Shown here one piece after another: positions 19,493 to 61,735 of a stretch of 61,775 bases of DNA. The stretch is taken from IMG/VR virus record IMGVR_UViG_3300027832_000007, one strand, 5' to 3'. Origin of the DNA: an uncultured virus (IMG/VR IMGVR_UViG_3300027832_000007). Lineage: Duplodnaviria; Heunggongvirae; Uroviricota; Caudoviricetes. Under the pieces are notes generated by a model that had not been told where the DNA came from, searched no databases, and saw only the letters and a list, made by a program, of their open reading frames with translations. Position 1 is the stretch's first letter, and every line of letters begins with the position of its first letter. The translations under genes were made by a program, and so were the position numbers.

Positions 19493-19936
19493 TTATTTTT
19501 TTTTCTTATGGAAATTAAATGTTTTATTACTATCAAATACTGTCTTTATTAAAGTATCTGATATTAAAACCAACCCATCAATCATCACTTCGGATGTCAA
19601 CGGAATTTCATTGCTTAGGAATAAAGTTATTTCACAATTCATAAAACTTCTTTTACCTAATTTTATTCCAGATTCACGTATATCTAAATCAACTATCGTT
19701 TTATCGTTCTTGAACATAGTCTCATAATGTGAATTTATATGTCCGAATAATGATTGTCTTATTTTTTTATTTAAATCTCTAATTGAACGACTGTAATTAA
19801 ATTCACTATCCTCAGTTGGCTCTACCCATGCTGACAGATTAATATATATTGCTTTAGGTTTCTTATTATTTACACTACCAAATATAACATTATAATTTTT
19901 GTGTCTATTAGTTTTAATTTCTTTACCAGTTTTCAT
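19493..19936 (-). CDS. hypothetical protein (probable start MKTGKEIK)
   Basis: ORF 19493..19978; the downstream Met follows an A-rich leader. Confidence 0.65.
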   Translation of the reverse strand: MKTGKEIKTNRHKNYNVIFGSVNNKKPKAIYINLSAWVEPTEDSEFNYSRSIRDLNKKIRQSLFGHINSHYETMFKNDKTIVDLDIRESGIKLGKRSFMNCEITLFLSNEIPLTSEVMIDGLVLISDTLIKTVFDSNKTFNFHKKKK

Positions 19937-19983
19937 ATTTTTTATTACAAGTATAATAAAAATAATTGGTATAGTCAACCCCC

Positions 19984-25634: not shown

Positions 25635-28600
25635 TTATTTTCTTCTTCCAAATAACCAAGCATACTCACCTTTTGGGTCTTGTATATTTTTATATGCCAA
25701 ATGATTTGGATTTATTTTAACTTCAGATTTATTAGTCTCTTTATTATAACTATTAGTAGTTGATGAAATTTGATTACCAGTAGCCCAACTATTTAATATT
25801 GCTTTGTTTTGTTTTTCTAATCTTTCCAAATTCTTAAATGAATGTTCCATTACCCAAAGACCCATACCCAATGACATAAGTAAATCATCGTGATATCCAT
25901 CCATATGGTCTGGTCTACCATTTTTAAATATAAATGTTTTCATTTCTGAAATCATTCTAGTTGAACGAATCTTAATACCATTTGTTCTTATTTGATATTC
26001 TAGATTTGAAATCATTGGTACACGAACATTTGTTGCGTGAAAACCTGGTATTTTACTACCTTTATCATAAGACGTTAACTCTCTTTGTCTAGCAGAAAGT
26101 ATTTTACCGTTATTACTATCATAATGTAAATATTTATAATCGAATTCTAATAATTTAAGTACCGTAGAAACACCCATACCACCAGTAACATCGACTACTG
26201 TATACGCTTTATATAGATTACCATACTCTTCAACAATTTGAGCTAATAAATCTGGTTGTATTTTACCTTGATACTCTAAAACTTCCTCCATTGTGGTGAA
26301 ATCTATAATAACGATAGTTGATGAATCCTCACTATCACCCCTAGATACATCACAATTATGGGTTGTTATATGGTGACACATAAAAGTATTAGTATCACAT
26401 TCAAAATTATATACATTCCCAGTGAACTTATTCTTATTTATTTTTTTAACTCTAAAATAAATATAATCTTTATTATCATCAAAATGACAAGAACTAATGA
26501 TTCGTTTATTCTTGGTATTAAAATCACCAATATCAAATTTATTTAACTTAATATCATCAGTTTTATAAATTAATTTTATTAAATCCAAACTGTCATGATT
26601 ACCTAAAGTTAAATTGTAGGTCTCGCTTTGTTGACATTCACGACCACAAATTATTGTAATTTTAGCATCTCGTAACTTATCTAAACATGAAACAACTCCC
26701 AATGAAAAAATAATATCTTGTACCGACTCCAATAATTCTAAATTGGTACTAACAAAACTTACCTTAGAATATTTCTTCCCGTTTTTCTGAGTTTTAACCC
26801 AACACCCATCACTATCAAAATACCCTCTAATTAATTCTTTTTTATTTTCATCAGATATAAACTTAACCCATTCTGATATTTTTTTACCATGTGAGTATTG
26901 TCCGAAATTTTCTAATATGAAATAATATAAAAATTTAGAATTAAACACTAGTTCAAAAGTACTACCTTTATCGATAAATGATGGTGAACTTTTAAATAAT
27001 CGTTTTATTATATCTTTACATTTCTCAATATAACCTTCATGTTTTTTATCAAAACATAACGATATTGCATATGAGTGTTTATTTTTATCTAATCCCCCAT
27101 CACCTAACCACATACCCATAAACCACCAAAAATCGTTCTCAAACAATGGTGACTCAAATTCAAATTCACATCTGACAGCATTATCTATCTTCCATTTATT
27201 ATTATAGCCACTTTTAATTGACTCTTTATAAATATTCGGCACCTTGACCCAATCCCCAATCTCAACCTCTTCTACCCTAGTATAATTAAAATCAAAATCC
27301 CAATACCTATCATTAAATTTATATTCATCATTATTTTTATCATAATTTCGTTTTAAATTAGATTTACTAATTAAAATTGGGTGTTCCTTAGTAAATGTTG
27401 TTGTTCTAAATGTATTATCCATTTGCATTTCAAACACATCTTCATCAACCACTTGGTAAATTTGTTTATTAATTATATTTACATAATTACCATCTTCACT
27501 TATTAACCTATCATTAATATCAACATCTTCAATATTTACCAATCCTTTATCGGTTAAGACTTTTTCATTCGGTGGTAAACATCCTAAAATATATTGGTGA
27601 CCCTCAATAGGTTCTTCCCATATCCAAGTCTCTTGCTCTAGACCATGCATATACTTAGGTTCTCTTACATTATTTTTATCTTGATATTCAATATACTCTT
27701 CATTAATAACGTTACCACCAGAACCAATAAATGACACATCTAATTCTTGTGCAATCATTTTTGAATCATTATTCATACCTAAACACATCTCTTCATACCA
27801 ACTCGATGTAGGTTTCCACCCATCACTTATTCGTTCTGAATATGTTTTAAATGTAAACTCAACCTCTTTCTCCAAAAGGTCCCCTTTAATCCATCTAAGG
27901 TCTTTATTATAACGTAAATCTTCAAACCATCTCATCTCAACAATGTTGAAATTATTCTTTTTATTTTTAGCTTGGTCATAAGTCTTATAATATAAAGAAT
28001 CCATACCATTAGGTGTTTGATGACCTAATATACCATTATAAATAACGGAATGACACCAAAAATCATTAGTTTCGGGTAATGAAACATCATATGTTTTATT
28101 TTTAAGTTTTTCTAATTTAGTTATTGGAACCCATTTTGAATCTTTAAAATTAATTTTATCAATTGAATATCTGGATAAATCAAGATTTAAAACATTAATA
28201 AAATAATCTATAAATTCATTAAAAATATTTACTGATAAATTAGCTGTTTTGTTTTTATTAGAAATTCTAATTTTATTAACTAGTAAACCAGTGTTAGATA
28301 ATTTTTTAACTAATTTATGTTCGTCTATAATATTTCTAATTATATTTTTACCGTTTGGTATTATTCTATATCCATTATTATATGATACTAATTTATTTTG
28401 GTCTCTTTTTATTTGTTTCCTATTAAATCTAAAACCAATGGTATCGTAATATTTATCCGCATCAATAGATGTCGATGAAAGTCTATAATATTGACTACTA
28501 ACTTTAACTTTTTTAGTTGGTGGTGTTATTTCTTCTGAATAATCAGTTAATATACCAAGATTTAAAAATAAAAACCTTATTTGTTGAATTAATTTTTTAG

Positions 28601-31301
28601 AGGATAAATTTATACCTACCCTACCTCTAATATTATCAGAATAACCATCACCATCCATAATACCTTGTAACATAGCAATAATATTTTCACGCCCCATTTC
28701 AAGTAAACGTCTAGGTATTAATTTATTTGGTGCTTTTAAGGTTAAATCAAAACCCAAATACTCTAACAAACTACCTAAATATTTAGATGAAATTTTATAG
28801 TGTAAATTATCGTGTGATGAATAATCAAACCCAGCATTAGATATGTATGTACCAACATCATCACCACATGATATCGTAATATCACAACCAACAATAATAC
28901 CATCAATATTTTTTGGTTTATAACAAGACCCTTCTGATAAATATAAACCAATTAGATAAGCTAAATCAGTATTTATTTTATCATAAATTATTTTTGGTTT
29001 ATTTTCTCTATTTGAAAACTCATAGGCAAAATCAATAGTATCGTTATTACCGAAAATATTAAACGAATGTTGTACGTTAACATAATCACCAATTTCTAAT
29101 TCACTAACCGTAAACCAATCATATTTGTTTTTTTTATTTGAATAAGACCACAATTTATGTGTTTCAGTCGACTCAAGTTCTGAATTAGTAGTTGTTAATT
29201 TTATAGTTTCTTGAAAACCATTATTAACAATTAAATTTGATTTCCTAGATATATTATTTCCTCTAATATTATATTCTTTAACATAATAACCTAAATTAGG
29301 TATATCTGGTTCATCATAATTAATAATGTCTTTCATTTGTTGTAAACCAGTATCAGTAAAAATAAAAGTATCTTCAGTAACACAGGATATAAGTGTTGCT
29401 CGACCCCCAGTATTATGACTTATAATACCGTTTGAAATAAATGAATTTGTTTCTGGTACATGTAAATCATAAGTATAATCTTCTGACTCAGTTATAGAAA
29501 TAATTTCATCAATATAAAATAATTCTTGTCTTTTTAATTGTTCAGTTAATGATAATAAAAAAGCATTATTTGGTAACAAGGATAATAAACGGTTTAATGA
29601 TTCGACACTTAATCTATTTAAGTCTGATTTCCAAAATCTTTCTAAAAATCTAACTTTAGTTTTAACTATATTATTTATTTGTAAAACTTCTAAAATTTCT
29701 TTATTACTTACATTAACAAATCTTGAGTTTTGTTTCTTATTTAATAAAAATTGTTTATTATTTTGTTTTCTATCTAATCTAAAACCAATTTCGTCATAAA
29801 ATTTAATTGCATAATTTGAATATATTTTTAAGTTGTAAATTTTACAAATATGTTTTTTATTTTTTAATATTGATGATTTAGATGTTTTTTGTTCTTCATA
29901 TTTAACATGTGATATAATACCAAAATTAAACAATAAAGTTTGTAGAGTTTGAATTAGTTTTTTAGATGTACTTGAATATTTAATATCTTTTATAGTACTC
30001 ATACCATCACCATCGAACATACCTTGTAAAAATGCTTTAATAACATCTTTAGGCATCTTTAATAACGCTAAAGGTATTTCTTTATCCCTAGCGTTATGTT
30101 TATCCAATCCAAACATTTTAAACCATTCAATTAATTCGGTTGAGTGAAATTGATAATGGAAGTCATCAACTTTTTTAAATGCGTTACCTAAACAAGCTTT
30201 ATCTGTTAATAGAAAATTTGTTATATAATCGTCAATATTTGTGATGGTAATACCTCTTGAATTAAAATTACCCTCAGCTACGAATAAACCTAATAAATAA
30301 GAAAAATCTAAATTGTCACCAAGCTTTTTAGGTATTGTGATGTTTTTATTATTTTTGGTTTTATTGAAAACAAAATTTACTTCACTATTATCACTAAAAT
30401 AATTTTGACCATATTGAATTATTGGTTTGTCACCAATTTTTAATTCGTTCATACGAACCCAATTTTCAGTTCCATTCCTATCAATTAAGATAGGATGTTT
30501 CCAACTCCCCTCTAATTCAACACCTAATTTAGTTTTTATTTTAAATGTTTGACCATATTCACTAACAAAAGTTTGAGTTGCATTAACAATATCACCATCT
30601 TTATTACAAACTTTATGTGGTAACTCCAAATCAGTGAAACCTATTTTATCTTTTTCAGAAACTAATTCATCAAGTTGAATTAAACCATTTTCAGTTAAAA
30701 TTAACGAATCTTTTGTTAAGCATCCTAAAGCTGTAAGTGCGGCACCAAAAACTTCAGCACCATTATCAATATATGCAGCCTCATCCATGATAAGAAATGT
30801 AGGTGTAAAACCCCTCAAAGCATCTTTAGATGTAGCAACCGCTTTAACACGACTACCATTAGGTAATTTTATTTCTTTTTTTGAATCTGTAATAAAAATT
30901 GATTTGGCGTCCTTTTTAGCATCACCACAATACTCACTTCCCCATACCCATCTAGGTAATTGACCAAGAAAATCTTTAATCTTAGCTAAGAATTCAAATG
31001 CAAGTTCTTGTTTATTGGCAATAATAAGTATATTCTCTGGGTTATCCCTATCACCAAAACCTACTTTGATTGACATATATGCAGCGGTTGTTGTTGATAC
31101 ACCAGCTTGACGTGGTTTTGTTACAATATTAAATCTATGTTTATCATATGCTTTAATTATTTCTTTTTGTCTAGGAAATAATTTAAAAGGTACGAAACCT
31201 TCTTGCGTTTTATCGAACGTTTCTAAATATGTCTCAATAGCATGAACAGAATCAGTAAGACAATGAGCATACTCTTGAAATATTTCTTGTGTTGTTAACA
31301 T
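25635..31301 (-). CDS. gp17: terminase large subunit (gp17-like) with three inteins
   Basis: LFPRQ, KPRQAGVST, RGFTPTFLIMDEAA, ISTPNG after splicing, GCDVSRGD, HDDLLMS; about 586 aa mature. Confidence 0.95.
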   Translation of the reverse strand: MLTTQEIFQEYAHCLTDSVHAIETYLETFDKTQEGFVPFKLFPRQKEIIKAYDKHRFNIVTKPRQAGVSTTTAAYMSIKVGFGDRDNPENILIIANKQELAFEFLAKIKDFLGQLPRWVWGSEYCGDAKKDAKSIFITDSKKEIKLPNGSRVKAVATSKDALRGFTPTFLIMDEAAYIDNGAEVFGAALTALGCLTKDSLILTENGLIQLDELVSEKDKIGFTDLELPHKVCNKDGDIVNATQTFVSEYGQTFKIKTKLGVELEGSWKHPILIDRNGTENWVRMNELKIGDKPIIQYGQNYFSDNSEVNFVFNKTKNNKNITIPKKLGDNLDFSYLLGLFVAEGNFNSRGITITNIDDYITNFLLTDKACLGNAFKKVDDFHYQFHSTELIEWFKMFGLDKHNARDKEIPLALLKMPKDVIKAFLQGMFDGDGMSTIKDIKYSSTSKKLIQTLQTLLFNFGIISHVKYEEQKTSKSSILKNKKHICKIYNLKIYSNYAIKFYDEIGFRLDRKQNNKQFLLNKKQNSRFVNVSNKEILEVLQINNIVKTKVRFLERFWKSDLNRLSVESLNRLLSLLPNNAFLLSLTEQLKRQELFYIDEIISITESEDYTYDLHVPETNSFISNGIISHNTGGRATLISCVTEDTFIFTDTGLQQMKDIINYDEPDIPNLGYYVKEYNIRGNNISRKSNLIVNNGFQETIKLTTTNSELESTETHKLWSYSNKKNKYDWFTVSELEIGDYVNVQHSFNIFGNNDTIDFAYEFSNRENKPKIIYDKINTDLAYLIGLYLSEGSCYKPKNIDGIIVGCDITISCGDDVGTYISNAGFDYSSHDNLHYKISSKYLGSLLEYLGFDLTLKAPNKLIPRRLLEMGRENIIAMLQGIMDGDGYSDNIRGRVGINLSSKKLIQQIRFLFLNLGILTDYSEEITPPTKKVKVSSQYYRLSSTSIDADKYYDTIGFRFNRKQIKRDQNKLVSYNNGYRIIPNGKNIIRNIIDEHKLVKKLSNTGLLVNKIRISNKNKTANLSVNIFNEFIDYFINVLNLDLSRYSIDKINFKDSKWVPITKLEKLKNKTYDVSLPETNDFWCHSVIYNGILGHQTPNGMDSLYYKTYDQAKNKKNNFNIVEMRWFEDLRYNKDLRWIKGDLLEKEVEFTFKTYSERISDGWKPTSSWYEEMCLGMNNDSKMIAQELDVSFIGSGGNVINEEYIEYQDKNNVREPKYMHGLEQETWIWEEPIEGHQYILGCLPPNEKVLTDKGLVNIEDVDINDRLISEDGNYVNIINKQIYQVVDEDVFEMQMDNTFRTTTFTKEHPILISKSNLKRNYDKNNDEYKFNDRYWDFDFNYTRVEEVEIGDWVKVPNIYKESIKSGYNNKWKIDNAVRCEFEFESPLFENDFWWFMGMWLGDGGLDKNKHSYAISLCFDKKHEGYIEKCKDIIKRLFKSSPSFIDKGSTFELVFNSKFLYYFILENFGQYSHGKKISEWVKFISDENKKELIRGYFDSDGCWVKTQKNGKKYSKVSFVSTNLELLESVQDIIFSLGVVSCLDKLRDAKITIICGRECQQSETYNLTLGNHDSLDLIKLIYKTDDIKLNKFDIGDFNTKNKRIISSCHFDDNKDYIYFRVKKINKNKFTGNVYNFECDTNTFMCHHITTHNCDVSRGDSEDSSTIVIIDFTTMEEVLEYQGKIQPDLLAQIVEEYGNLYKAYTVVDVTGGMGVSTVLKLLEFDYKYLHYDSNNGKILSARQRELTSYDKGSKIPGFHATNVRVPMISNLEYQIRTNGIKIRSTRMISEMKTFIFKNGRPDHMDGYHDDLLMSLGMGLWVMEHSFKNLERLEKQNKAILNSWATGNQISSTTNSYNKETNKSEVKINPNHLAYKNIQDPKGEYAWLFGRRK
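26355..27581 (-). mobile_element. terminase intein 3 (409 aa), LAGLIDADG
   Basis: ILG/CLPPNEKV ... GMWLGDG ... IRGYFDSDG ... HITTHN/CDVS. Confidence 0.93.
28017..29384 (-). mobile_element. terminase intein 2 (456 aa), LAGLIDADG, C-terminal Gln
   Basis: LIS/CVTEDTFI ... LIGLYLSEG ... LQGIMDGDG ... NGILGHQ/TPNG. Confidence 0.92.
29412..30722 (-). mobile_element. terminase intein 1 (437 aa), LAGLIDADG
   Basis: ALG/CLTKDSLIL ... LLGLFVAEG ... FLQGMFDGDG ... NGIISHN/T. Confidence 0.93.
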
Positions 31302-33761: not shown

Positions 33762-34158
33762 GGTTAATTTTATTATATTCTAATATTAGGTCTTTTTCGT
33801 ACAATTTAGCTTCAACATCTTTAATAGTATCACCAAATTTAAAGCAAAGTCTATTCTCTGGGTAAGTATCGTAATTGTTTATATTCTCCCATGACAAAGC
33901 AATAACTCCGTCAACAGCATCCCATACAGCAAAGGTATCACTTTCTTGAATAACATCCAAAATTAAGTCAGACTGTAAACGTCCAACTTTCTTAATTAAA
34001 TGTTCATGAGGTGGTTCTGGTCTACCAGAAGCTGGAAATGTGTCCCACTCTTCACCATCTATGTTTGAAATAGTATCAGAAAATATGAACTCATATAAAA
34101 ATTCACCTCTATAATCTTTACCTACCTTATTAACATATATTAAAAAAAGTTCTTTCAT
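33745..34158 (-). CDS. hypothetical protein
   Basis: 137-aa ORF, translationally coupled. Confidence 0.7.
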   Translation of the reverse strand: MKELFLIYVNKVGKDYRGEFLYEFIFSDTISNIDGEEWDTFPASGRPEPPHEHLIKKVGRLQSDLILDVIQESDTFAVWDAVDGVIALSWENINNYDTYPENRLCFKFGDTIKDVEAKLYEKDLILEYNKINHGKEK

Positions 34159-35627
34159 TATTTTTCAGCTTTAGGGTCCGTTTGAGGTATTGTATCTGGC
34201 TCAATCGTAAATGGTTTATTTTTTCTACTAGGTGCAAAAGGTTTAGTTGTTCTTTTAGGTTCTATAACTGGCATTGGTGCTGGCTCTACAAACGGTTCTA
34301 AATCGTCATTAAATGTCTCTCTTAATCTCATAGTTAAATCTTTTTTCCCAAAGATACTATTTCCACCACTAACAATCAAGTTTTCACCGACTATTTTAGA
34401 AACTGGGGTTGATGACCACATTTTACATGACCAATATTTTGGTGTTGTTTTATCTTTAGCTTCAGAACATTTATGTCTAGCTCTAAATGCTTTTTTTCTT
34501 TTTGGGTCATCTCTTTTAATTTCCATATTAGGGTCACCAAAATTAACCTTTATAACATTACCTTTTTTATTTTTTACAAATACTTTGAATTTTTTTACGT
34601 CACCACTAGTTGGTTTATTTAATTTTTTATCATCATATTTACCTTCATAAAGTTCAACATTTTCAACCGTACCATACTCATCTTCATAACCACACTCTGT
34701 CTCACCATCATAATCCATTGAACTGGAATCAACATTAGTGTCAAAGAAATGATATACTTCTTCAATATCATCTGCCGAAGTAGAAATGTGGTCAACAGCC
34801 CATGCGTGACCATTTGCACACATTTCATCTATTTTATCTTTATCCATTCCTAACAATTCACTAGAAGCATGATTTAAGGTTTTAAGGTTTTGCCAAAACG
34901 TATAATTATTTGATTCTCTACCCTCAACACCTTCATTAACTGGTACACAATTAGGTACTTGTTTACCATTCTTCTCCTTCATTCCAATTTGTTGATAATT
35001 TTTCCAACATGGGTCAGAATCAACTGCCTCATCTAAATCATTTTCTGGAATGTGTTCTTTACTATATTTTGGTGCAAATATACTTACTTTTGGGACCTTT
35101 TCTTTATCCAATAAGTATTTACCCTCTTGTAAATCTTCATCACCATCATTTTCACCGTTATTACTATTATCATCAAACCCAGCATTGTCATTATCGCTAC
35201 CGTTATCTTCCGTATTGTCGGAATCTTCTGATTCATTTCCAGATGTATTAACTTTCTTAATTATATCGTTTTTATCCTCTTCATCCATTTGAGAAGTATG
35301 TGTTGCCGATAATAAAGAATTAATCGCAAATTTTTCTAATTCATAATCTGGTTGTCCTTGGTCTTTAGAATACTGTCTTAAAGACTGACCCAATTTACCA
35401 GTCAATTGTTGGATGTATTTTTTGGGGTCAGAATCTTCATTTGCTTCTACTCCAGCATCAAATGGTTCATCATCGAAAGGTTTATCATCTACTGGTAATT
35501 CCTCACCAGAATCCATAGATGGCTCTTCACTACTAGAACCATCAAAACCACCAAAACCAGCTTCATCAGCTGGTTCGGCAATAGGTTCGGCTGAAACTTT
35601 TGGCTCTAGAGCATCAAGTTTCAACAT
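34158..35627 (-). CDS. modular acidic putative head protein; probably the C-terminal part of a -1 frameshift fusion with 35642..36424
   Basis: Small modules DPCWKNY...VPNCVP and KKFKVFVK...VNFGD...FRARHKC...YWSCKMW separated by L-x-E linkers; its frame stays open upstream into the A10 run. Confidence 0.7.
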   Translation of the reverse strand: MLKLDALEPKVSAEPIAEPADEAGFGGFDGSSSEEPSMDSGEELPVDDKPFDDEPFDAGVEANEDSDPKKYIQQLTGKLGQSLRQYSKDQGQPDYELEKFAINSLLSATHTSQMDEEDKNDIIKKVNTSGNESEDSDNTEDNGSDNDNAGFDDNSNNGENDGDEDLQEGKYLLDKEKVPKVSIFAPKYSKEHIPENDLDEAVDSDPCWKNYQQIGMKEKNGKQVPNCVPVNEGVEGRESNNYTFWQNLKTLNHASSELLGMDKDKIDEMCANGHAWAVDHISTSADDIEEVYHFFDTNVDSSSMDYDGETECGYEDEYGTVENVELYEGKYDDKKLNKPTSGDVKKFKVFVKNKKGNVIKVNFGDPNMEIKRDDPKRKKAFRARHKCSEAKDKTTPKYWSCKMWSSTPVSKIVGENLIVSGGNSIFGKKDLTMRLRETFNDDLEPFVEPAPMPVIEPKRTTKPFAPSRKNKPFTIEPDTIPQTDPKAEK

Positions 35628-35641
35628 ATATTTAGTTTCGT

Positions 35642-36424
35642 TTAAACTTTTTTTTTTAAATAAGCAGCTGCCGCTTCTTCACTTACAGTTCCACCTTTAC
35701 GAAACAATGAAGCTATACTAATATTATTAGGATTAATTTCTCTACCTTTTTCAGTTAGTTCAGCAATAATACTTTCTATTTTTTCGCTATTTTCGCTATT
35801 TTCAGATGGAACTTCAAGCATCTCAGTTAATCTATCAATTGACTCCTCCATAGATTCTTCTTTTACGTCTCCAGTTCCGCAGTCTTTTTCAGTTAACATA
35901 GCTTCGATAATAGCTTCTTCCTCAGTCATTTCAATTTCTTCTTCAATTTCTCCCTCTTCTTCATATAACACAGTATTACCTGCTAAATTTCCAGCACCAG
36001 AAAAACCATTTCCACCATAATTAGAGAAACCAGCAATACCAGATTCAGATAATAAATTATCATCTTTCAATACGTTTATAGTAAGTTCTTTATCGAAAGC
36101 TTCAGCCAATGAATTAAACCTTAAATTTAAATGTTTAGTTGCTTTAGCATATGAAGGATAAGATTCAGATTTTTTATTTTGTAAACCACCAATATATTTA
36201 AAATCTTCAGCTAATATGTTTGAAGTTTTATCGCTAATTTTAATATAATATTCATGATTTTCTCTAACAATAGCGTAAGCTTTATTATCTGGACCAATCT
36301 TAGTTAACTCAATAACATATGATGTTTTATTTTCGTTGATTGTTTTAATACCCATTAAATGACGCATACGTTCATTTATTTCTTCACCCTTAAGACCTAA
36401 TGGCATTATTTTATTATTTTTCAT
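35642..36424 (-). CDS. putative head protein ending at a slippery A10 run
   Basis: YAIVRENHEYYIK, FKYIGGLQN; ends YLKKKV*. Confidence 0.7.
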   Translation of the reverse strand: MKNNKIMPLGLKGEEINERMRHLMGIKTINENKTSYVIELTKIGPDNKAYAIVRENHEYYIKISDKTSNILAEDFKYIGGLQNKKSESYPSYAKATKHLNLRFNSLAEAFDKELTINVLKDDNLLSESGIAGFSNYGGNGFSGAGNLAGNTVLYEEEGEIEEEIEMTEEEAIIEAMLTEKDCGTGDVKEESMEESIDRLTEMLEVPSENSENSEKIESIIAELTEKGREINPNNISIASLFRKGGTVSEEAAAAYLKKKV

Positions 36425-36757: not shown

Positions 36758-37555
36758 TTAATTCGATAAAGGAGCTTTTATCGTTGGATGTGATTCGTAC
36801 CCAGTAAATTTAAATTGGTCAATGTTATAGTCTGATATGTCAGAACCAATAGGTTCACCATGTATCTCCAATCTAGGTAAGTCAAATGAATCTCTTCTCA
36901 ACTGTTCTTTAGCCTGTTCTATATGATTAGAATATAAATGTACATTGGTTAAATCACCTATTAAAAAACTAGGAACCATATTAACCTCCTTAGCTAACAT
37001 TTCTAATAACAAACCATAAGATGCTATATTAAATGGTAAACCTAAAAATGTGTCAACACTTCTTTGATGCCATTTAAGATTAAGTTTTCTTTTTGGTATG
37101 TTTCTTTCATCACAAGATTTAATTTGTTGAATTGTTAGTGCTGGATATTTTACTTGGATAGTACCGCCAGCCAATTTAACCCTTTCCTCGTCACTTAATT
37201 CTTCAGTATAACACTCAAATGCCCAATGACAAGGCGGTAAAACCATCTTGTCAATCTCACCAACATTCCAAGCTGAGACAATCAATCGTCTTGAGTCTGG
37301 GTCATTTTTTAAACTGTGTATTAACTCTTTAATTTGGTCTAAAATTGGTTGCCTATCAAAATGTGTAACACTACCATGACAGTAAGAAGAAGGTACTAGT
37401 TTATACCCACCCCACGCTCTCCATTGTTTTCCATATACTGGACCTAAATCACCCCATTTTTTAGCAAATTTAATATCAGTTTTAATTCTATCAGTAAATT
37501 CTTCTTGTGTATAAGGTCTACCACTTTCATGTAAATCATTTCTATTTGCTTTCAT
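36758..37555 (-). CDS. thyA: thymidylate synthase, C-terminal (catalytic) fragment
   Basis: DLGPVYGKQWR, PDSRRLIVSAWN, LPPCH, QRSVDTFLGLPFNIASY, HLYSNH, IKAPLSN. Confidence 0.95.
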   Translation of the reverse strand: MKANRNDLHESGRPYTQEEFTDRIKTDIKFAKKWGDLGPVYGKQWRAWGGYKLVPSSYCHGSVTHFDRQPILDQIKELIHSLKNDPDSRRLIVSAWNVGEIDKMVLPPCHWAFECYTEELSDEERVKLAGGTIQVKYPALTIQQIKSCDERNIPKRKLNLKWHQRSVDTFLGLPFNIASYGLLLEMLAKEVNMVPSFLIGDLTNVHLYSNHIEQAKEQLRRDSFDLPRLEIHGEPIGSDISDYNIDQFKFTGYESHPTIKAPLSN

Positions 37556-38258
37556 CTTCTATATTTTTATATTTCCATTTATAACCACCAGCGGTTTTAT
37601 TCCTACCTCTTAAACAATGTCCAATCCCCCCAACATTTATGTTTAACACATTAGCGGCATCTACAGCTGAACTAAACACATCAATAACTTCACCATCTAA
37701 ATTAAGTTGATAAATAGGTTTTTTACTCTGTTCATGTACTTTATTTAGGAATGAATAATCTGTTTTCCTGTTTTTTATTGATTCTCTCCAACTATCCCAA
37801 TCAGTATTTTTCTTTGCTTTATCAGCTCTTTTCTTAAAATCAACTTTTTCGATTCGTTCTCTAAGTATTTTTTTTATTTCATCATCACTAACATTCTTCA
37901 ACCAATCATTCAAGTGTTTACTATTTTCTGGATTGTGAAATGTTGGGTTTGAATAATCTATAAATTTAGATGTATCTCCACCGTCACCTATTTCTTCTCT
38001 CAAATTAGCCCATTCTTTTGACTTAACAACATCGTACAATAAACTCAATTCAAGTCCTTTTTCAATTAACTTGTCAATATCGGTTGTTTCAAAAACAATC
38101 TCGGTCTTAATATCACCAATCGTCAAATTATGTTTTTTAATATGACGCTTCCAAATTTTACCACTACCTAAATATATAAACGGGTCTTTTGTTGTTTTAC
38201 CTAGATACCTTAACCCTATTGGGCTCGTCTTAATGTATAAATAATATTTTTTTTCCAT
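37542..38258 (-). mobile_element. free-standing GIY-YIG (Seg-like) homing endonuclease with C-terminal NUMOD1-like HTH
   Basis: YYLYIKTSPIGLRYLGKT, YLGSGKIW, WANL..GDGGD; KPIYQLNLDG...TAGGYKWKY; inserted inside thyA. Confidence 0.85.
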
Positions 38259-38300: not shown

Positions 38301-38618
38301 CTAATTATTGTTATCTTTTTTTAATTTTTCACATTCTTTTAAGTAAAAATTATAACTATCCCCATTCCAAATATTACAACCATTATCCACGAGATATTTT
38401 ATATTTGTATCTCCTTTAAGAAACCATAATAATTCAGTTATAATTCCTTTGGTAAACATTTTTTTTGTTGTTAACAAAGGGAATCCAGTTGACATATCAT
38501 GTTTTATTTGATGAGAGAACAATGAAAGAGTACCAGTACCAGTTCTATCCTCCTTTTTAATACCAAAATCTATTATATCCCTAAGTATATTTTGATAATC
38601 TTTATCTAATTTATTCAT
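38301..38618 (-). CDS. thyA: thymidylate synthase, N-terminal fragment (probable start MNKLDKDYQ)
   Basis: YQNILRDI, DRTGTGTLSLF, GFPLLTTKK, ELLWFLKGDTNIKYL, IWNGD. Confidence 0.95.
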   Translation of the reverse strand: MNKLDKDYQNILRDIIDFGIKKEDRTGTGTLSLFSHQIKHDMSTGFPLLTTKKMFTKGIITELLWFLKGDTNIKYLVDNGCNIWNGDSYNFYLKECEKLKKDNNN

Positions 38619-38625
38619 TATATGT

Positions 38626-39084
38626 TTAAACAATAGTTACGTTATTTGTAGTTATTTTTTCTAAATTACTAATATTATCTTTTAAACCTTTTAACGATGC
38701 TTTCGTAACATTACCATTCTTAAAGTAATTAGCAATAATAGTACTCATAGCTTCTAATAATTCTTTTGTTCTAGATTCTGGTGTCGATGTATCTCCAACC
38801 AACTCTAATTCTTTTATTTCTTTAATCATCTCAGTAACATCAATACCACCTAACTTTTCACTAGAGTATTTTTTTATATGACTACTCAATATTGAACCTT
38901 GACTATCAGCAAGTTCAAAACGTGTATAATCTGTTTTTGAAACACCTTTATATAGGTATTGACCACCATACGTAAAAATCAACGTTAAATCGTTTGTTAA
39001 GTTGTTATACGTTGATGCACAAATGTTAGACGATGAATAAATAGCTTTAACTACACCTTCTTGTTCTTTTCTTTTTAAAATCAT
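38626..39084 (-). CDS. KTSC-domain protein
   Basis: SSNICASTY...LTLIF..GGQYLYKGV....Y..F..ADSQG. Confidence 0.75.
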   Translation of the reverse strand: MILKRKEQEGVVKAIYSSSNICASTYNNLTNDLTLIFTYGGQYLYKGVSKTDYTRFELADSQGSILSSHIKKYSSEKLGGIDVTEMIKEIKELELVGDTSTPESRTKELLEAMSTIIANYFKNGNVTKASLKGLKDNISNLEKITTNNVTIV

Positions 39085-39438: not shown

Positions 39439-40239
39439 ATGAATAGAGAAATTTATCCTAAAGTTAAGATTATAATGAATAACTCAATTAAAGAAGCTAA
39501 AGCTTTTGATGATGTTAAAGTTAAACCAGAGCATATACTCTTATCGATATTATCTGATAATGATAATACATGTGTAAATATATTAAAAAAATTAAAAGTA
39601 GAACCTTCAGATTTATATGATTTAATTTATACATTTGTTAGAGTGAATGATTTAATACCTAGAGTAAGTAAAAATAGACGCTCACTTCCTTTTTCTGACG
39701 AAAGTAAGGCTATTATAAATTCTTTAGATAAAGAGTGTGATAAATTAGGTGATATTATGATTGACACTACTCACATCATGTTGGCTATGTTAAATTCTAA
39801 GTATCCAATATCTAAATTTTTAATCGATATGGGAATTACTTATGACATATTTTTAATATCAATGGTTGGTGAAGATTATAAACCAGAACAAATTAAAAGT
39901 GCATTGGAAGAATCTAGTGATGAGCTAGATTCTTTTAATGGGAAATCAAAACAAGGTGAACCTAAAAGTAAAACACCAGTATTAGATAATTTCTGTAGAG
40001 ATATATCTAAAGCCGTTGAAAGAGGTGAATTAGACCCAGTTGTTGGTAGAGCCCCAGAAATTAAGAGGATATCTCAGATATTATCTAGGAGAAAGAAAAA
40101 TAACCCAGTGTTGATTGGTGAGCCAGGAGTTGGTAAGTGTATTTGTCCTGATACTGAGGTAGTTATGAGAAATGATTTAACTGGAGAAGTGTTTAAAACA
40201 ACAATAACTAATTTATTAAATACGTTTACCAACAGCTAA
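39439..40239 (+). CDS. clpC: ClpC AAA+ chaperone N-terminal part fused to a 33-aa split-intein N-fragment
   Basis: Clp N repeats ([17 protein letters not shown]), [41 protein letters not shown], then /CICPDTEV...*. Confidence 0.93.
40138..40236 (+). mobile_element. split intein N-fragment (IntN, 33 aa)
   Basis: Block [12 protein letters not shown] right after the Walker A Lys, followed by a stop. Confidence 0.88.
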
Positions 40240-40307
40240 TTAACTTTTTTTCACTTCATTATTTACTTTTCTTACTATTGAATATGTTTATAATAAAAGT
40301 AAATGTA

Positions 40308-40661
40308 TGAAAATTAAATATAAAAAGAATGGTAATTTTGAAGTTGAGTTTAACGAATATTTTAAAAACGTTGATAACTTGAAGGGTTTTATAAAATAAA
40401 AAAACAAATTTATTAATGTGGAAACTTTAGAAAATTAAATACAATTGATTTATAATGATTTAGTTTTATTAGACCACTCGATTAAATCTAGTTTATTAGA
40501 TTGGTTTATTGTTGGTAGGTTTAATTTTAAATATAAAATACCTAACAACCTTAATTTTTGGTTAGAAAGGGTTTGATGTAATGGTAGTTTGGGATTCGGA
40601 ATATAGATGGGGAAATAGAGAAGAAATAATAAATAAATGCATTAAATTTTTAAATAAATAA
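40308..40661 (+). pseudogene. decayed Vsr-like homing endonuclease remnant between the split-intein halves
   Basis: MKIKYKKNG...* fragment, NFWLER, then in another frame KGFDVMVVWDSEY...IINKCIKFLNK* (Vsr-type C-terminus); stops and frameshifts. Confidence 0.65.
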
Positions 40662-40663
40662 AA

Positions 40664-41035
40664 ATGGAAGAATTAAAAAAAATAACCAAATCATTTGATA
40701 TGTCTGGTTTTAGTATCTTAACTGATAGTGGTTTTGTGAAACTTGCGAAACTACATGAAACAATACCTTATCAAGTATATCAGCTTAACTTAAATGATGG
40801 GAAAAAACTTAAATGTGCGGATAACCATATCGTATTCTATAAAGATGATATGGAAGAGGTCTTTATTAAAAATTTATTGATTGGTGACAAAATCTGTGTT
40901 AATGGTGATGATAGTTTATCTGAAGTTGAGGTTATTGGTATAACCAATTTAGGTTACGAAGAGATTATGTATGATTTTCAATTAACTGAGGGTTCAAATA
41001 GAAGATATTATACTAACGGAATATTATCACATAAT
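40664..41035 (+). mobile_element. split intein C-fragment (IntC, 124 aa)
   Basis: ILTDSGF, LKCADNH (block B), MYDFQL, YYTNGILSHN/T. Confidence 0.88.
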
Positions 41036-43870
41036 ACTGCAATAGTAGAAGGGTTAGCACAATTAATAATGGATGGTAACGCACCTAGAACCCTAATCAA
41101 TAAAAGAATTTTTAGTCTAGATTTAGCATCGATAGTTGCTGGTACTAAATACCGTGGCCAATTTGAGGAAAGAATGAAAGCTGTTCTAGAAGAATGTAAA
41201 GCAAATCCAAATGTTATTTTATTCATAGATGAACTACACACTATTGTAGGTGCTGGTAATGCTTCTGGTTCTCTAGATGCGTCAAATATATTTAAACCAG
41301 CATTAGCTAGGGGTGAACTTCAAGTAATTGGTGCAACTACACTGGATGAATATCGTGAAAATATCGAAAAAGATGGAGCCCTCGTAAGAAGATTTCAACA
41401 AATTCTTGTGGAAGAACCAACGCTAGATGAAACAATAGTTATTCTTAACAATATTAAAGAAAAATATGAAAAACACCATAATGTTAAGTATACCGATGAA
41501 GCCATTGAGGAATGTGTTAAACTTTCAGCTAGATACATTATGGATAGAGCAATGCCAGATAAAGCCATAGATGTTTTAGATGAAGCTGGTGCGGCAACAA
41601 ATGTTGGTATTGAAAAACCAAACGCTATTAAATTGCTAGAAAATAAGCGAAATGAGGTTAATGAACAGAAAAAAGAGGTTATAATCAAACAAAAATACGA
41701 GGAAGCTGCTAAACTTAGAGATGAGGATAGAAAAATAAGTCAAGAATTAGATAAGGCTATGAAAGTATGGCAAGAAAGTCTAGATAAAGATGTTACTGAA
41801 GTTGGTGTAGAATTAATTTCTGATGTCGTATCTATGATGACTGGAATACCATTAACTAAAATATCAACTGGTGAAAGTAAACGTCTAATGCTTTTAGATA
41901 AAGAACTAATGGGTAAAGTAATCGGTCAAGATGACGCAGTTACCAAAGTTGTTAAAGCAATTAAACGTAATCGTATTGGTATTAAAGATAAAAGTAAGCC
42001 AGTGGGGTCATTTATCTTTCTGGGACCCACTGGAGTCGGTAAGTGTTTTTGTTCTGATACTAAGATAGTTATAAGAAATAAAACTACTGGTTTAGTTGAG
42101 GAAATTGATATTAATGAATTAAAAATGAATAAAAGAATTAAAGAACTACTAGAAAAAGGTGAAAAACTTCACCAAAAACATGATGAATTACGGGATGAGG
42201 TTTTAAAATCAAATTGGTCTGATGATTTTAAAACTAAATTTAAAGAATTAAATGTGTATATGGATGATTCAACTAAAAATGAGGTGTTAGAATATACCCT
42301 ATGTGATAATCTAAATGGTGGTATAGCAAAACCAGAATATAAATTTACTGTTCTAATCAAAACGTTAAATTTTGAAAATAAAAATGGTGATGAAATTAAA
42401 TTAATTACTGATGATGTTGAGTTATTATTAAACCATGAACATTGCTATGTAACTATGTTTGCTATAGGTAAATTAAATGGTGAGGTATTTTCTGTTAATG
42501 AAACTGATGATAGTTTTGATATTTTAGAAAAACATTTATCTAATGGTCACCATATAGTAATATATTCGGCTAGTATTAGTGATGGCAGGGTTATTTATAG
42601 ATATTCATTATTTGAAACGAATGGGTTTATTAAACCATTAAATAGGGTAGAAGAAATTGAAAAAAGAGTTGGTGATAATGTTTTATTATTTAATAAACAT
42701 GAATTTGAGTCACTTAAAAAAATAACAAAAACTACAAAAGTAAGTGATTACGAAGTATTAACTGATGATGGTTTTGTTGATATAGAAGCGTTACATGAAA
42801 CAATTCCATATGAAGTATATAAACTTAAGCTAAGTGATGGTAAAGAGCTTAAATGTGCCGATAACCATATTGTATTTAATGAAGAAATGAAAGAAGTTTT
42901 CGTTAAAAATCTATCTATTGGTGATAAGGTAAAAGTTGATGTTAATTGTGTGTTATCCGAATCTGAAGTAGTTGAATTAACTAATTTAGGTTATGAGGAA
43001 ATAATGTATGACCTTGAATTAAAAGAAGGTTCAAATAGAAGATATTACACCAACGGTATTTTATCGCATAATACATTGTTAGCTAAATTTTTAGCTGAAA
43101 ACGTTTACGGTGACTCAGAAGCTTTGATTAGAATGGATATGTCTGAGTACATGGAAAAACATTCTGTATCTAGACTAATAGGTCCACCACCAGGGTATGT
43201 TGGATACGACCAAGGAGGTCAATTAACTGAGAAAGTTAGACGAAAACCACATTGTGTTATTCTTTTCGATGAGATTGAAAAAGCACATGACGATGTATTC
43301 AACCTTTTATTACAACTATTGGATGAAGGGCAATTAACAGATGGTTTAGGTCGTAAAGTTAATTTTAAAAATGCACTTATTATTCTTACATCAAATATCG
43401 GTGTTAAAGAAGTTTTATCATTCGGTAAAAATATGGGATTTGATACTGGTTCAACTATCTTAGATGAGGAAAATAAGAGTCGTGCTATTATAGAGAAAGC
43501 TTTAAAGCAGAAATTCAAACCAGAATTCCTTAATCGTATTGATGATGCGATTATCTTTAGAGGATTAACACAAGAAGATATTCATAAGATTATTTTCTTA
43601 GAAGTTGAAAAATTAAGAAAACGTGTAATTGAGATGGGTTATAATCTAACGATATCTAAAGATGCTATTGAATTTCTAGGTGTTAAAGGTTATGATGAGG
43701 CTTATGGTGCTAGACCTTTATCTAGAGCAATTCAACATTATGTTGAAGATGCAGTAGCTGATGAAATTCTAAATGATAAAATTAAAGAAGGTGATATCAT
43801 TCAAGTAGGTTTAGATAAAGTAAAACAATTGATTACACTTAAAGGCGTGAAGCCTAAGAAAATAAAATAA
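40664..43870 (+). CDS. clpC: split-intein C-fragment plus the rest of ClpC (AAA1, UVR middle domain, AAA2 with a second intein)
   Basis: SHN/TAIVEGLA, GTKYRGQFEER, FIDELHT, GATTLDEY, PDKAIDVLDEAG, GPTGVGK, RMDMSEY, LFDEIEKAH, MGF ClpP-docking loop, YGARPL. Confidence 0.93.
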   Translation: MEELKKITKSFDMSGFSILTDSGFVKLAKLHETIPYQVYQLNLNDGKKLKCADNHIVFYKDDMEEVFIKNLLIGDKICVNGDDSLSEVEVIGITNLGYEEIMYDFQLTEGSNRRYYTNGILSHNTAIVEGLAQLIMDGNAPRTLINKRIFSLDLASIVAGTKYRGQFEERMKAVLEECKANPNVILFIDELHTIVGAGNASGSLDASNIFKPALARGELQVIGATTLDEYRENIEKDGALVRRFQQILVEEPTLDETIVILNNIKEKYEKHHNVKYTDEAIEECVKLSARYIMDRAMPDKAIDVLDEAGAATNVGIEKPNAIKLLENKRNEVNEQKKEVIIKQKYEEAAKLRDEDRKISQELDKAMKVWQESLDKDVTEVGVELISDVVSMMTGIPLTKISTGESKRLMLLDKELMGKVIGQDDAVTKVVKAIKRNRIGIKDKSKPVGSFIFLGPTGVGKCFCSDTKIVIRNKTTGLVEEIDINELKMNKRIKELLEKGEKLHQKHDELRDEVLKSNWSDDFKTKFKELNVYMDDSTKNEVLEYTLCDNLNGGIAKPEYKFTVLIKTLNFENKNGDEIKLITDDVELLLNHEHCYVTMFAIGKLNGEVFSVNETDDSFDILEKHLSNGHHIVIYSASISDGRVIYRYSLFETNGFIKPLNRVEEIEKRVGDNVLLFNKHEFESLKKITKTTKVSDYEVLTDDGFVDIEALHETIPYEVYKLKLSDGKELKCADNHIVFNEEMKEVFVKNLSIGDKVKVDVNCVLSESEVVELTNLGYEEIMYDLELKEGSNRRYYTNGILSHNTLLAKFLAENVYGDSEALIRMDMSEYMEKHSVSRLIGPPPGYVGYDQGGQLTEKVRRKPHCVILFDEIEKAHDDVFNLLLQLLDEGQLTDGLGRKVNFKNALIILTSNIGVKEVLSFGKNMGFDTGSTILDEENKSRAIIEKALKQKFKPEFLNRIDDAIIFRGLTQEDIHKIIFLEVEKLRKRVIEMGYNLTISKDAIEFLGVKGYDEAYGARPLSRAIQHYVEDAVADEILNDKIKEGDIIQVGLDKVKQLITLKGVKPKKIK
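42044..43072 (+). mobile_element. contiguous intein (343 aa) in the ClpC AAA2 Walker A, with an about 196-aa unknown insert
   Basis: GVGK/CFCSDTKIVIRN ... LKKITK ... LKCADNH ... YYTNGILSHN/TLLAK. Confidence 0.9.
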
Positions 43871-46701: not shown

Positions 46702-47193
46702 TTAACCCTCCTTTATTACTTCACCTAGATATTCATAACTAAAACAAATTCGTTTGTTATCTACATAATGATTCTTAAACAAGTTCTCATGTGTAACATC
46801 AGTTCTTAATTTTCTATTTTTACTAGTTGCCCTCCATAGTCTTGAATTTTGCATGTACATACCCATTCTTGGATGTGCTGTTCTTGAAAAAAACCTATGA
46901 CCTTCATCTAAATGAATTTGAGCGATAGCGTTAATAAATCTAACACCAATTCCTAATCCTTGGAAATCTGGGAGTATAACTACCCTATGTCCTCGCCATG
47001 CATTCTTAAGTGAACCACTAGGCATTGTCATTGTTGCACAGAAACCAATTACTTGTCCTTCCCAAACAGCAACATAACATCTAGATGCTTTACTAATTGT
47101 TCCACTTAAATAGTGATGGTCCTTAAAAGTTCCCCAACTATCATTTGTTGTGCGATATATCTTGATATTGATTTCTGGTCGGACAAAAAAAAA
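46702..47193 (-). CDS. Mom-like GNAT acetyltransferase domain, reached by a -1 frameshift from the ABC ATPase
   Basis: Frame open from the T9 run: VRPEINIKIY...FKDHHYL...VIGFCA...HRVVILPDFQGLGIG (acetyl-CoA motif)...RTAHP. Confidence 0.8.
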   Translation of the reverse strand, partial: FFFVRPEINIKIYRTTNDSWGTFKDHHYLSGTISKASRCYVAVWEGQVIGFCATMTMPSGSLKNAWRGHRVVILPDFQGLGIGVRFINAIAQIHLDEGHRFFSRTAHPRMGMYMQNSRLWRATSKNRKLRTDVTHENLFKNHYVDNKRICFSYEYLGEVIKEG

Positions 47194-47795
47194 CCGTCTA
47201 GCAGTTCACCTGTATCCGTATTTAAAACCCAATCTGGCTCAAGCCAATCCACAATATCACTATGACAAGTGGAGATTACTATATTCTCTAAGTTATTCTT
47301 CCTAACATACCTAGACATTGACACAGAGGCAGCCTTAGCGACATTTCTATCGACTACTGAAGTAAACTCATCTATTACACTATTTGATTTGATTCTACGA
47401 GCTAAATCAGCTCTAAATTTTTCCCCATTAGATAATACATCATATGGTTTGTACCAAGAAGGTACAGTATTCAATCCAACTGAACCTAATTTATTTATTG
47501 CTTCATCTGGATTTTCGAAATGTGAAACTATTGATTTGTTTGCTTCCCATATTAATTTCTCTTCAGTACCAAAATGTTTTAACATTGTTGATTTACCACT
47601 TCCAGAAGAACCAACTATTACACCGATACTAAATTTAGATGGTATGTTTTTTGGTAGTTTCCAAGGATAAAATTTTGATGTACCATCAAAAATACAGTCA
47701 AATGCTTTTTCACTAGCTGTAATAAATTCGTCTCTATCTACTGATGAAATTAAAGGTTTTTCTTCTTTTTCTAATTTTTCAATAACTTTATTCAT
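47106..47795 (-). CDS. stand-alone ABC-type ATPase (probable start MNKVIEK)
   Basis: GSSGSGKST Walker A, LSNGEKFR signature, IDEFTSVVDR, TCHSDI..WLEPDW; late promoter at 47812. Confidence 0.88.
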   Translation of the reverse strand: MNKVIEKLEKEEKPLISSVDRDEFITASEKAFDCIFDGTSKFYPWKLPKNIPSKFSIGVIVGSSGSGKSTMLKHFGTEEKLIWEANKSIVSHFENPDEAINKLGSVGLNTVPSWYKPYDVLSNGEKFRADLARRIKSNSVIDEFTSVVDRNVAKAASVSMSRYVRKNNLENIVISTCHSDIVDWLEPDWVLNTDTGELLDGFFLSDQKSISRYIAQQMIVGELLRTITI

Positions 47796-47848
47796 AATAT
47801 AAAACTTTATTATAAATATATTATTAATACGAGAAGTTATGAAAATAA

Positions 47849-47881
47849 AATGACTAATGTACTTAAAGCACATTAGTCATT
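47849..47881. terminator. 12-bp perfect hairpin, likely a terminator
   Basis: AATGACTAATGT-acttaaagc-ACATTAGTCATT. Confidence 0.6.
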
Positions 47882-61454: not shown

Positions 61455-61735
61455 CATCTCTAAAAATGAAGTCAAAAAAAAATCTGGAAAAAAATTTTGG
61501 AAATAGAGGGGGGCTAAAAATGAAGTCGAAATTATAATGGCAGTATATAATGGTAGTATATAATGGGAGTATATGAGGGAGTATATTTAAAATGGTGAAA
61601 AAATCTGTAAAAAAAATTTTGGAAATAGAGGGGGCTAAAAATGAAGTCAAAAAAAATCTGTAAAAAAAATTTTGTGAATATCCCATCTCTAAAAATGAAG
61701 TCAAAAAAAAATCTGGAAAAAAATTTTGTGAACAT
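61455..61735. repeat. non-coding direct-repeat cluster
   Basis: CTAAAAATGAAGTC at 61460, 61514, 61635 and 61689 within longer A-tract repeats; 13-bp TATAATGGnAGTA tandem x3 at about 61533-61571. Confidence 0.85.

Follow-up and report, generated by a model that had tools for sequence, protein, structure and literature searches.

The window, a stretch of 61,775 nucleotides (nt) from an uncultured virus of the Caudoviricetes (IMG/VR record IMGVR_UViG_3300027832_000007), carries on its minus strand two open reading frames (ORFs), here called A and B, whose frames overlap at a homopolymer of ten A's. ORF A encodes a conserved N-terminal domain of about 125 amino acids (aa), a variable acidic region, the residues KKK and a one-residue tail (Val), and its end reads GCT TAT TTA AAA AAA AAA GTT TAA. 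The features that make up the junction are the following.

35642..36424, minus strand: ORF A, the zero-frame short product of 260 aa, with the C-terminus YLKKKV-stop
35648..35657, minus strand: the A10 run (T10 on the plus strand), the predicted slip site
35642..35644, minus strand: the zero-frame TAA stop, 3 nt 3' of the run
35645..35678, minus strand: the only stretch able to join the frames by a -1 shift, bounded by the point where the -1 frame opens and by the stop of the zero frame
34158..35627, minus strand: ORF B as listed, 489 aa, in the -1 frame relative to ORF A
34158..35648, minus strand: the 496 aa that the -1 frame adds to the predicted long product, beginning with AGT (Ser) at 35648, ending at the stop at 34158-34160 and containing ORF B
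35554..35576, minus strand: a terminator-like hairpin with a U-rich tail, inside the B frame and 72 nt downstream of the run

The -1 frame is bounded by a TGA at 35681-35679, opens at 35678 and reads ..FKKKSLNETKYM into ORF B; the overlap of the two frames amounts to 37 nt in the window, the stop included, and to 13-64 nt in relatives. One additional A, or a -1 shift within the run, yields a product of 259 + 496 = 755 residues, as read from the window's own DNA (locus L002). The sequence, the A10 coordinates and the frame relation given in the original prediction all proved correct when the window was read again, and what could have spoken against it was absent, the DNA having ten A's rather than 11 and homologues retaining the run.

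The site is very probably one of programmed recoding, whether by the polymerase or by the ribosome. ORF A and ORF B would accordingly be one recoded gene, in which standard decoding gives the 260-aa form ending at the TAA, while in a fraction of expression events the frame would move to -1 inside the A10 run. The long form would then consist of the shared N-terminal 259 residues, S-L-N-E-T-K-Y.. and the entire modular B part. In the favoured version of this mechanism, RNA polymerase would slip on the T10 template and add one A to some of the messenger RNAs, translation would proceed normally, and the ratio of short to long form would be set by the slippage.

Conservation of the run, the frames and the joint

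With a G+C content of 28.5%, about two runs of at least ten are expected per strand of the window, so the A10 run alone lies within chance; what goes beyond chance is the conservation of the run and of the frame relation among relatives. The run length on which the original prediction turned was borne out by contigs from four of the four DNA sequencing runs compared (X1, possibly the window's source, and X4, X5 and X6, from three other studies), which all have A10 and no insertion or deletion across it, with the reservation that the depth at the run is only 2.1 in X5 and that contigs cannot reveal minor run-length variants. The run is also intact in X6, which comes from a diverged strain that differs by 16 substitutions over 900 bases. 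The stretch or part of it is contained in 16 of the 18 DNA sequencing runs listed and in no RNA run; G001, the closest record, shows 100% identity across 2401 bases, represents the same virus and is no independent check.

A search of viral contigs with ORF A gave 80 loci at 39-76% identity, and B stands in the -1 frame at 80 of 80 loci containing both parts; L001 and L002 are the window's own DNA, and L019 ends before B. The 65 non-duplicate junctions have A10 in 54 cases, A9 in nine and A11 in two, the distance from the run to the zero-frame stop being 2-24 nt and the -1 frame opening 13-64 nt before that stop. When 80 further viral and 80 metagenome loci were added, B was found at -1 in 223 of the 240, at +1 in one and fused to A in one, and 15 short contigs had no B. 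Among the 110 non-duplicates, which are related sequences and not phylogenetically independent, the A9-A11 run and the -1 relation, whose conservation the original prediction had left to be checked, are kept in 108 (A10 in 88, A9 in 17, A11 in two, plus L194 with A10; none is shorter than nine). The remaining two are L102, where an A9 run with one A fewer than in its neighbour L079 places B at +1 (about 2270-2300), and L160, a single run-less ORF whose downstream neighbour is the gene that also follows B in the window. In L194 (1185-1250), an otherwise normal A10 junction is preceded, at a distance of 18 codons, by an in-frame TAA. Each of L102 and L194 is either a variant that exists in nature or a misassembly of a short contig.

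B has no conserved start codon of its own. Directly behind the run, the codons of the -1 frame specify a conserved [LIVM]-x-E and then (T)-K-Y-K-L-K, which is present in all 63 junctions with the motif among the 65 examined. The ATG of the window at 35627 stands for the second Lys of K-Y-K-L-K and is not conserved; in 21 of the 63 junctions the B frame lacks ATG, GTG and TTG up to this motif, and an ATG occurs in 15. Leu in the motif is encoded by TTG 28 times, by CTG 13 times, by TTA eight times, by CTA seven times and by CTT four times. A scan for promoter-like sites gave no excess over shuffled sequence and none between A and B.

The codons of the run point in the same direction. In the ORFs of the A/B family, Lys is encoded by AAA in 82% of 5633 codons, and KKK outside the junction is a pure A9 in just 2 of 47 instances, the other 45 being broken by AAG, whereas at the junction it is a pure A9 in 64 of 64. 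The codon preceding the junction KKK encodes eleven different amino acids and ends in A in 51 of 64 cases, against a third-position background of 38%; these counts, too, come from related sequences that are not independent. As for the bases behind the run, the 15-nt overlap occurs as 21 distinct sequences, which encode eight different zero-frame tails (VYTLK in ten) as opposed to 20 different -1 peptides. Pairwise differences in this overlap are synonymous and nonsynonymous at 561:535 in the zero frame versus 119:977 in the -1 frame, and the C-terminus of the short form is therefore kept by purifying selection, while these bases, read in the -1 frame, encode a free linker that lasts until the conserved motif.

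Beyond the close relatives, the family is large, a HMMER search against 1.84 billion representatives finding 747 clusters at E <= 0.001 and 88 at E <= 1e-30. Of the best 150 clusters, 105 stop no more than 12 residues after KKK, 25 join A and B in-frame in one protein, and the other 20 are fragmentary or unclear. Distant relatives thus encode A and B as one in-frame protein. There are 15 fused rows without the KKK joint, 12 of which fall into one clade (support 92 in a quick tree) whose N-domain is joined almost directly to the K-Y-K-L-K motif. Another eight fused rows have KKK at the joint and are nested among split forms, five of them in one well-supported clade of eight; some match the predicted -1 peptide exactly, e.g. 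KKK-S-L-S-E-T-K-Y-K-L-K, and the seven of the eight that were looked up are singletons from one contig each. The tree is poorly resolved, with 65 of 137 forks open, and is rooted at its midpoint only.

A further variation of the joint was seen in a well-supported clade of five clusters (P0098, P0101, P0105, P0106 and P0116), in which A ends in KKK-(S/I)-L-(N/I/K)-stop, i.e., the first residues of the usual -1 peptide and then a stop. This clade has no member among the 240 loci.

Since the run and frame relation are kept, B lacks a conserved start, distant relatives are fused, the KKK codons at the junction are biased and the short tail is under selection, both the short and the long product are predicted to be made from A and B. 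The proposal that a -1 shift generates a 755-aa form besides the short one is hence upheld by the 108 of 110 non-duplicate loci, the missing start of B and the distant in-frame fusions.

Possible mechanisms: transcriptional slippage and ribosomal frameshifting

Slippage of RNA polymerase is the favoured, albeit not a secure, source of the shift, because of the run-length signature, the in-phase heptamers tolerated elsewhere and the lack of a conserved stimulatory fold. In the cited passages of the literature, bacterial RNA polymerase is described as slipping efficiently in vivo at 9 A or T, with an RNA-DNA hybrid of 9-10 bp (PMC5009743), and the E. coli enzyme as requiring a run of 7 or more T's, or of an even larger number of A's (PMC6260861). 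A homopolymer of about nine or more A/T at the frame joint, as expected for transcriptional slippage, is present in 108 of 108 -1 junctions (A9-A11, mostly 10), and so are the other expected marks, a start-less downstream frame (21 of 63) and a conserved layout (108 of 110). A_AAA_AAG, on which E. coli ribosomes shift far more readily than on A_AAA_AAA according to the same source (PMC5009743), is never used at the junction. Moreover, in-phase heptamers are tolerated outside the junction in the same genes, where A_AAA_AAA occurs 72 times and A_AAA_AAG 18 times in 51,684 codons.

No conserved fold was detected over 65 loci, the mean z being -0.35 in the 60 nt that follow the run and -0.48 in the 60 nt that precede it, and Rfam gave no match at the junction. 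The 7-bp stem of the hairpin at 35554..35576 is identical in 12 of 12 distinct sequences of the sub-clade with the motif EPADDAGFG, where neighbouring synonymous sites vary, but it shows no covariation, and the motif is found in just 23 of 65 loci. The hairpin could be a partial terminator that adds to the short:long ratio or a mere by-product of the conserved EPADDAGFG peptide.

The window has a second site of similar layout, which bears on the same question.

47185-47193, minus strand: the second predicted slip site, T9 in the sense strand, within ORF 47106..47873 (region 46702-47873)

The ORF 47106..47873 (minus strand) is ABC-ATPase-like (phrog_11143), and the -1 frame, which opens 4 codons before the run and extends over about 165 codons, has a GNAT-like motif. 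Among 20 loci with both parts, 17 have T9 with the second part at -1, two distant ones are in-frame and run-less, and one (L257) is at -1 without the run. As the T9 site joins the A10 site in the same window, homopolymer slippage is suggested to be a recurrent route to two proteins in a fixed ratio in these AT-rich phages.

The ribosome is a genuine possibility, although a less probable one. Here the shift would come from tandem tRNA-Lys slippage on A_AAA_AAA without a stimulator, as in lambda G/GT, or from length-dependent sliding on poly-A. The heptamer expected for ribosomal frameshifting does lie in phase inside every run, all runs being of at least nine A's, and both low-efficiency frameshifting without a stimulator in tailed phages and sliding of ribosomes on A runs are on record in the cited passages (PMC5009743). 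However, shorter sites of 7 or 8 nt or alternative heptamers, which would be expected in some relatives, occur in 0 of 108 junctions, none of which uses A_AAA_AAG; with an A before KKK in 51 of 64 cases, the run is longer than a heptamer needs; and outside the junction these genes tolerate 90 in-phase A_AAA_AAA/G heptamers. Nor is there the expected conserved structure downstream or upstream in the 65 loci, for which no separate search for Shine-Dalgarno-like sites was made.

Several points weigh against the polymerase, in addition to the relatedness of the loci counted and the limits of the contigs given above. Every run of nine or more A's also holds the in-phase A_AAA_AAA, and ribosomal -1 slippage or poly-A sliding would yield an identical protein. 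The window's own downstream 60 nt fold well (z = -3.3), a feature that is not common to relatives. Only the KKK codon test demonstrates that long runs are depleted, because the counts of A runs outside the junction decay roughly geometrically (392 of A6, 132 of A7, 31 of A8, seven of A9 and none of A10 in the 51,684 codons). Finally, at the second site the T9 run is replaced in L257 by A_AAT_TTT, a classic heptamer that lies in phase, showing that at least one phage of the group makes use of ribosomal frameshifting.

Either mechanism has precedents, described here as far as the cited passages go. In Citrobacter rodentium tssM1, an A11 run precedes a premature stop, frameshifting amounts to about 20-25% and both forms are required (PMC4256274). 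The likeness to A/B lies in the A run shortly before a stop, in extra A's that restore the frame to give a short and a full-length form, and in the fact that most homologues elsewhere are single in-frame genes (PMC4256274). On the other hand, tssM1 is a bacterial secretion-system gene for which the process was experimentally shown (PMC4256274), whereas A/B is a phage gene whose mechanism is deduced from sequence only and whose layout extends over more than 100 lineages rather than two species. The dnaX gene of Thermus thermophilus, which uses a 9-nt run for polymerase slippage, likewise has a homopolymer and two products (tau/gamma) with a common N-terminal part in a set ratio (PMC5009743); there the long form is in-frame and slippage leads to the short one, whereas in A/B the short form is in-frame. 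By analogy, the in-frame clade with the KKK joint might represent a Thermus-like arrangement. The lambda G/GT pair resembles A/B as a gene of the morphogenesis region with a short and a long form, a common N-terminal part and no strong stimulator, but differs in relying on a ribosomal heptamer shift, in lying between tail genes and in belonging to another protein family (PMC5009743). A/B, by comparison, has a run of at least nine A's, lies upstream of terminase and portal and shows no chaperone similarity.

Explanations without recoding

Three further explanations dispense with programmed recoding, and the strongest of them is still very unlikely. It holds that the run is a contingency tract in the DNA, in which replication slippage mixes A10 and A11 genomes, so that the long form comes from an in-frame sub-population. 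Length variants do occur: L102 is one A short and has B at +1, 8 of the 150 representative clusters are in-frame with a KKK joint (singletons in the seven cases looked up), and the fused P0073 is a near-identical sister of the split P0067. Nevertheless, 108 of the 110 non-duplicate assemblies share one out-of-frame state, the contigs of all four sequencing runs have A10, and the tail of the short form is under selection. The DNA of the in-frame KKK relatives was also sought; a search of viral and metagenome contigs with P0094 found only split relatives, and a search with P0099 found no match.

It is even less probable that A and B are separate genes, with B starting at its own ATG at 35627, perhaps by re-initiation after the stop of A. 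The ATG of the window does follow that stop by 14 nt, and an ATG lies somewhere in the corresponding stretch in 15 of 63 relatives, yet it replaces a Lys of the motif, is not conserved and has no common start codon as a substitute in 21 of the 63. Two separate genes would not be expected to keep a single frame relation and an A run in 108 of 110 loci, nor a conserved [LIVM]-x-E in the B frame upstream of the ATG position; besides, distant relatives are single ORFs, and promoter-like sites are not in excess.

An error of sequencing or assembly, or a decaying pseudogene, is the least credible account, for although homopolymers are error-prone and the twin record G001 is not independent, A10 is also what the contigs of three other studies have, the -1 relation results alike from runs of 9, 10 and 11 A's that differ in phase, and both halves are conserved as protein over several hundred clusters.

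Protein family, gene neighbourhood and function

ORF A has an invariant ..RENHEYYIK.. core and an invariant KKK in an alignment of 36 relatives (A1). AlphaFold2 predicts a three-stranded sheet with a helix, at a pLDDT (predicted local distance difference test) of about 90 for residues 40-110 and with confidence only within about 36-110; the rest of A, as well as B, is predicted to be acidic and largely disordered, with small folded modules. The model of B, whose mean pLDDT is 61.5, shows helices at 75-135 and 249-305 besides small beta modules, and the conserved parts of B are a core (about 57-135 of 496) and a basic, proline-rich C-terminal end. The variable region of A, from the N-domain to the run, differs greatly in length among the aligned relatives, A as a whole ranging from 201 to 569 aa. 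Small cysteine-rich or EF-hand/dockerin-like inserts come and go in this region between lineages.

Searches in databases yielded no named family. A has no Pfam or PHROG match and B matches unnamed PHROGs only; for 36 relatives of A and 35 of B, Pfam gave weak matches only, e.g. a dockerin/EF-hand-like motif in 3 of the 36. In the ESM Atlas, all scores were below 0.9, the best hit of a sequence search of the PDB had an E of 0.08, and Foldseek found nothing at E <= 0.001 for the A model against the PDB. The B model, compared with BFVD by Foldseek, matched only uncharacterised phage proteins with small common modules (labelled DUF6321, ChaB and XkdF). Among GenBank phages (50,697 records), A had no match and B had matches to short modules only.

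A and B belong to a late module on the minus strand. From upstream, the order is thymidylate synthase, interrupted by an endonuclease ORF, then an ORF of 81 aa, A and B, followed by three ORFs without matches (137, 350 and 437 aa), a large terminase of 1888 aa and a portal of 1304 aa, and then by three small ORFs, a T4 gp21-type protease of 621 aa, a very acidic ORF of 431 aa and a gp23-type major head protein of 611 aa. The window can be placed as a distant T4-like giant phage because its major head protein is 36-44% identical to its nearest cultured relatives, from Flavobacterium phage immuto and Microcystis phage Mel-JY01. CheckV rated the 40-kb record G001 as 12% complete, which also points to a giant phage. 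The possibility that A/B is a tail-assembly chaperone of the G/GT kind was rejected, the neighbours being thymidylate synthase, terminase, portal, protease and major head protein, and no match to that family having been found.

Other interrupted genes and A runs were noted in the window. The thymidylate synthase is in two pieces (38301..38633 and 36758..37555, minus strand) with an HNH/intron-type endonuclease ORF between them (37542..38258), which looks like an intron with a homing endonuclease. The protease (17547-19412), portal (21402-25316) and large terminase (25635-31301), all on the minus strand, are far over the usual length, have internal endonuclease/HNH matches and probably contain inteins. 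At 39439-43870 (plus strand), ORFs of 266 and 1068 aa match consecutive parts of the ATP-dependent protease profile phrog_4871, and this pair may be a split or interrupted gene. An A9 run at 19496-19504 (minus strand), before the stop of ORF 19493..19978 (..HKKKK-stop), was considered as a recoding site and rejected, since there are stops in all frames and a GGCCC..GGGCC terminator hairpin; the protease gene lies downstream of this run in the -1 frame. Near the end of the window (61474-61723, plus strand), a motif ..GAAGTC A8-9 TCTG.. A7-8 TTTTG.. is repeated several times, with A9 runs at 61474 and 61703.

The label of 'head protein' for A and B derives solely from their position in the head module, three genes upstream of the large terminase. 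The T4 protease gp21 cleaves after L/I-x-E. The pattern [LI]-x-E is mildly enriched in A (12 versus 6.9 +/- 2.3) and in B (8 versus 4.2 +/- 1.9), and by its motif the [LIVM]-x-E after the junction is possibly a T4-type prohead protease site. From gene position and composition, one may guess at a modular cargo protein associated with the head, whose shared N-terminal part would set the number of copies that carry B. In the wider picture, A/B would act like retroviral Gag/Gag-Pol: the protein would enter the prohead by way of its shared N-terminal domain, the number of copies with swappable B modules would be fixed by the slip rate, and cleavage by the prohead protease at the conserved [LIVM]-x-E behind the joint would release the cargo within the capsid, to be delivered together with the DNA. 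Gag/Gag-Pol is a possible functional parallel only, in that an N-terminal assembly part brings in a minority C-terminal cargo before a protease acts (in the cited passages of PMC5009743), whereas for A-B, packaging and cleavage are proposed from gene position and the [LIVM]-x-E motif. That such a Gag/Gag-Pol-like A10 device and a routine use of homopolymer slippage in uncultured T4-like giant phages both hold is, as a joint proposition, unlikely.

Full-text searches, in which supplements were not opened, found neither the site nor the family described. The junction of A and B is a recoding site of a known kind that is real and highly conserved, and it belongs to a large family of proteins not found described in print. 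The family forms a natural series for the relation of run length to slippage, with A9, A10 and A11 runs, an in-frame clade and a run-less fused clade. Gene callers split the gene into two 'hypothetical proteins', the second with a false start, and several hundred clusters are affected (747 at E <= 0.001). Once the slip site is recognised, a core late gene can be annotated correctly in a large clade of uncultured aquatic giant phages.

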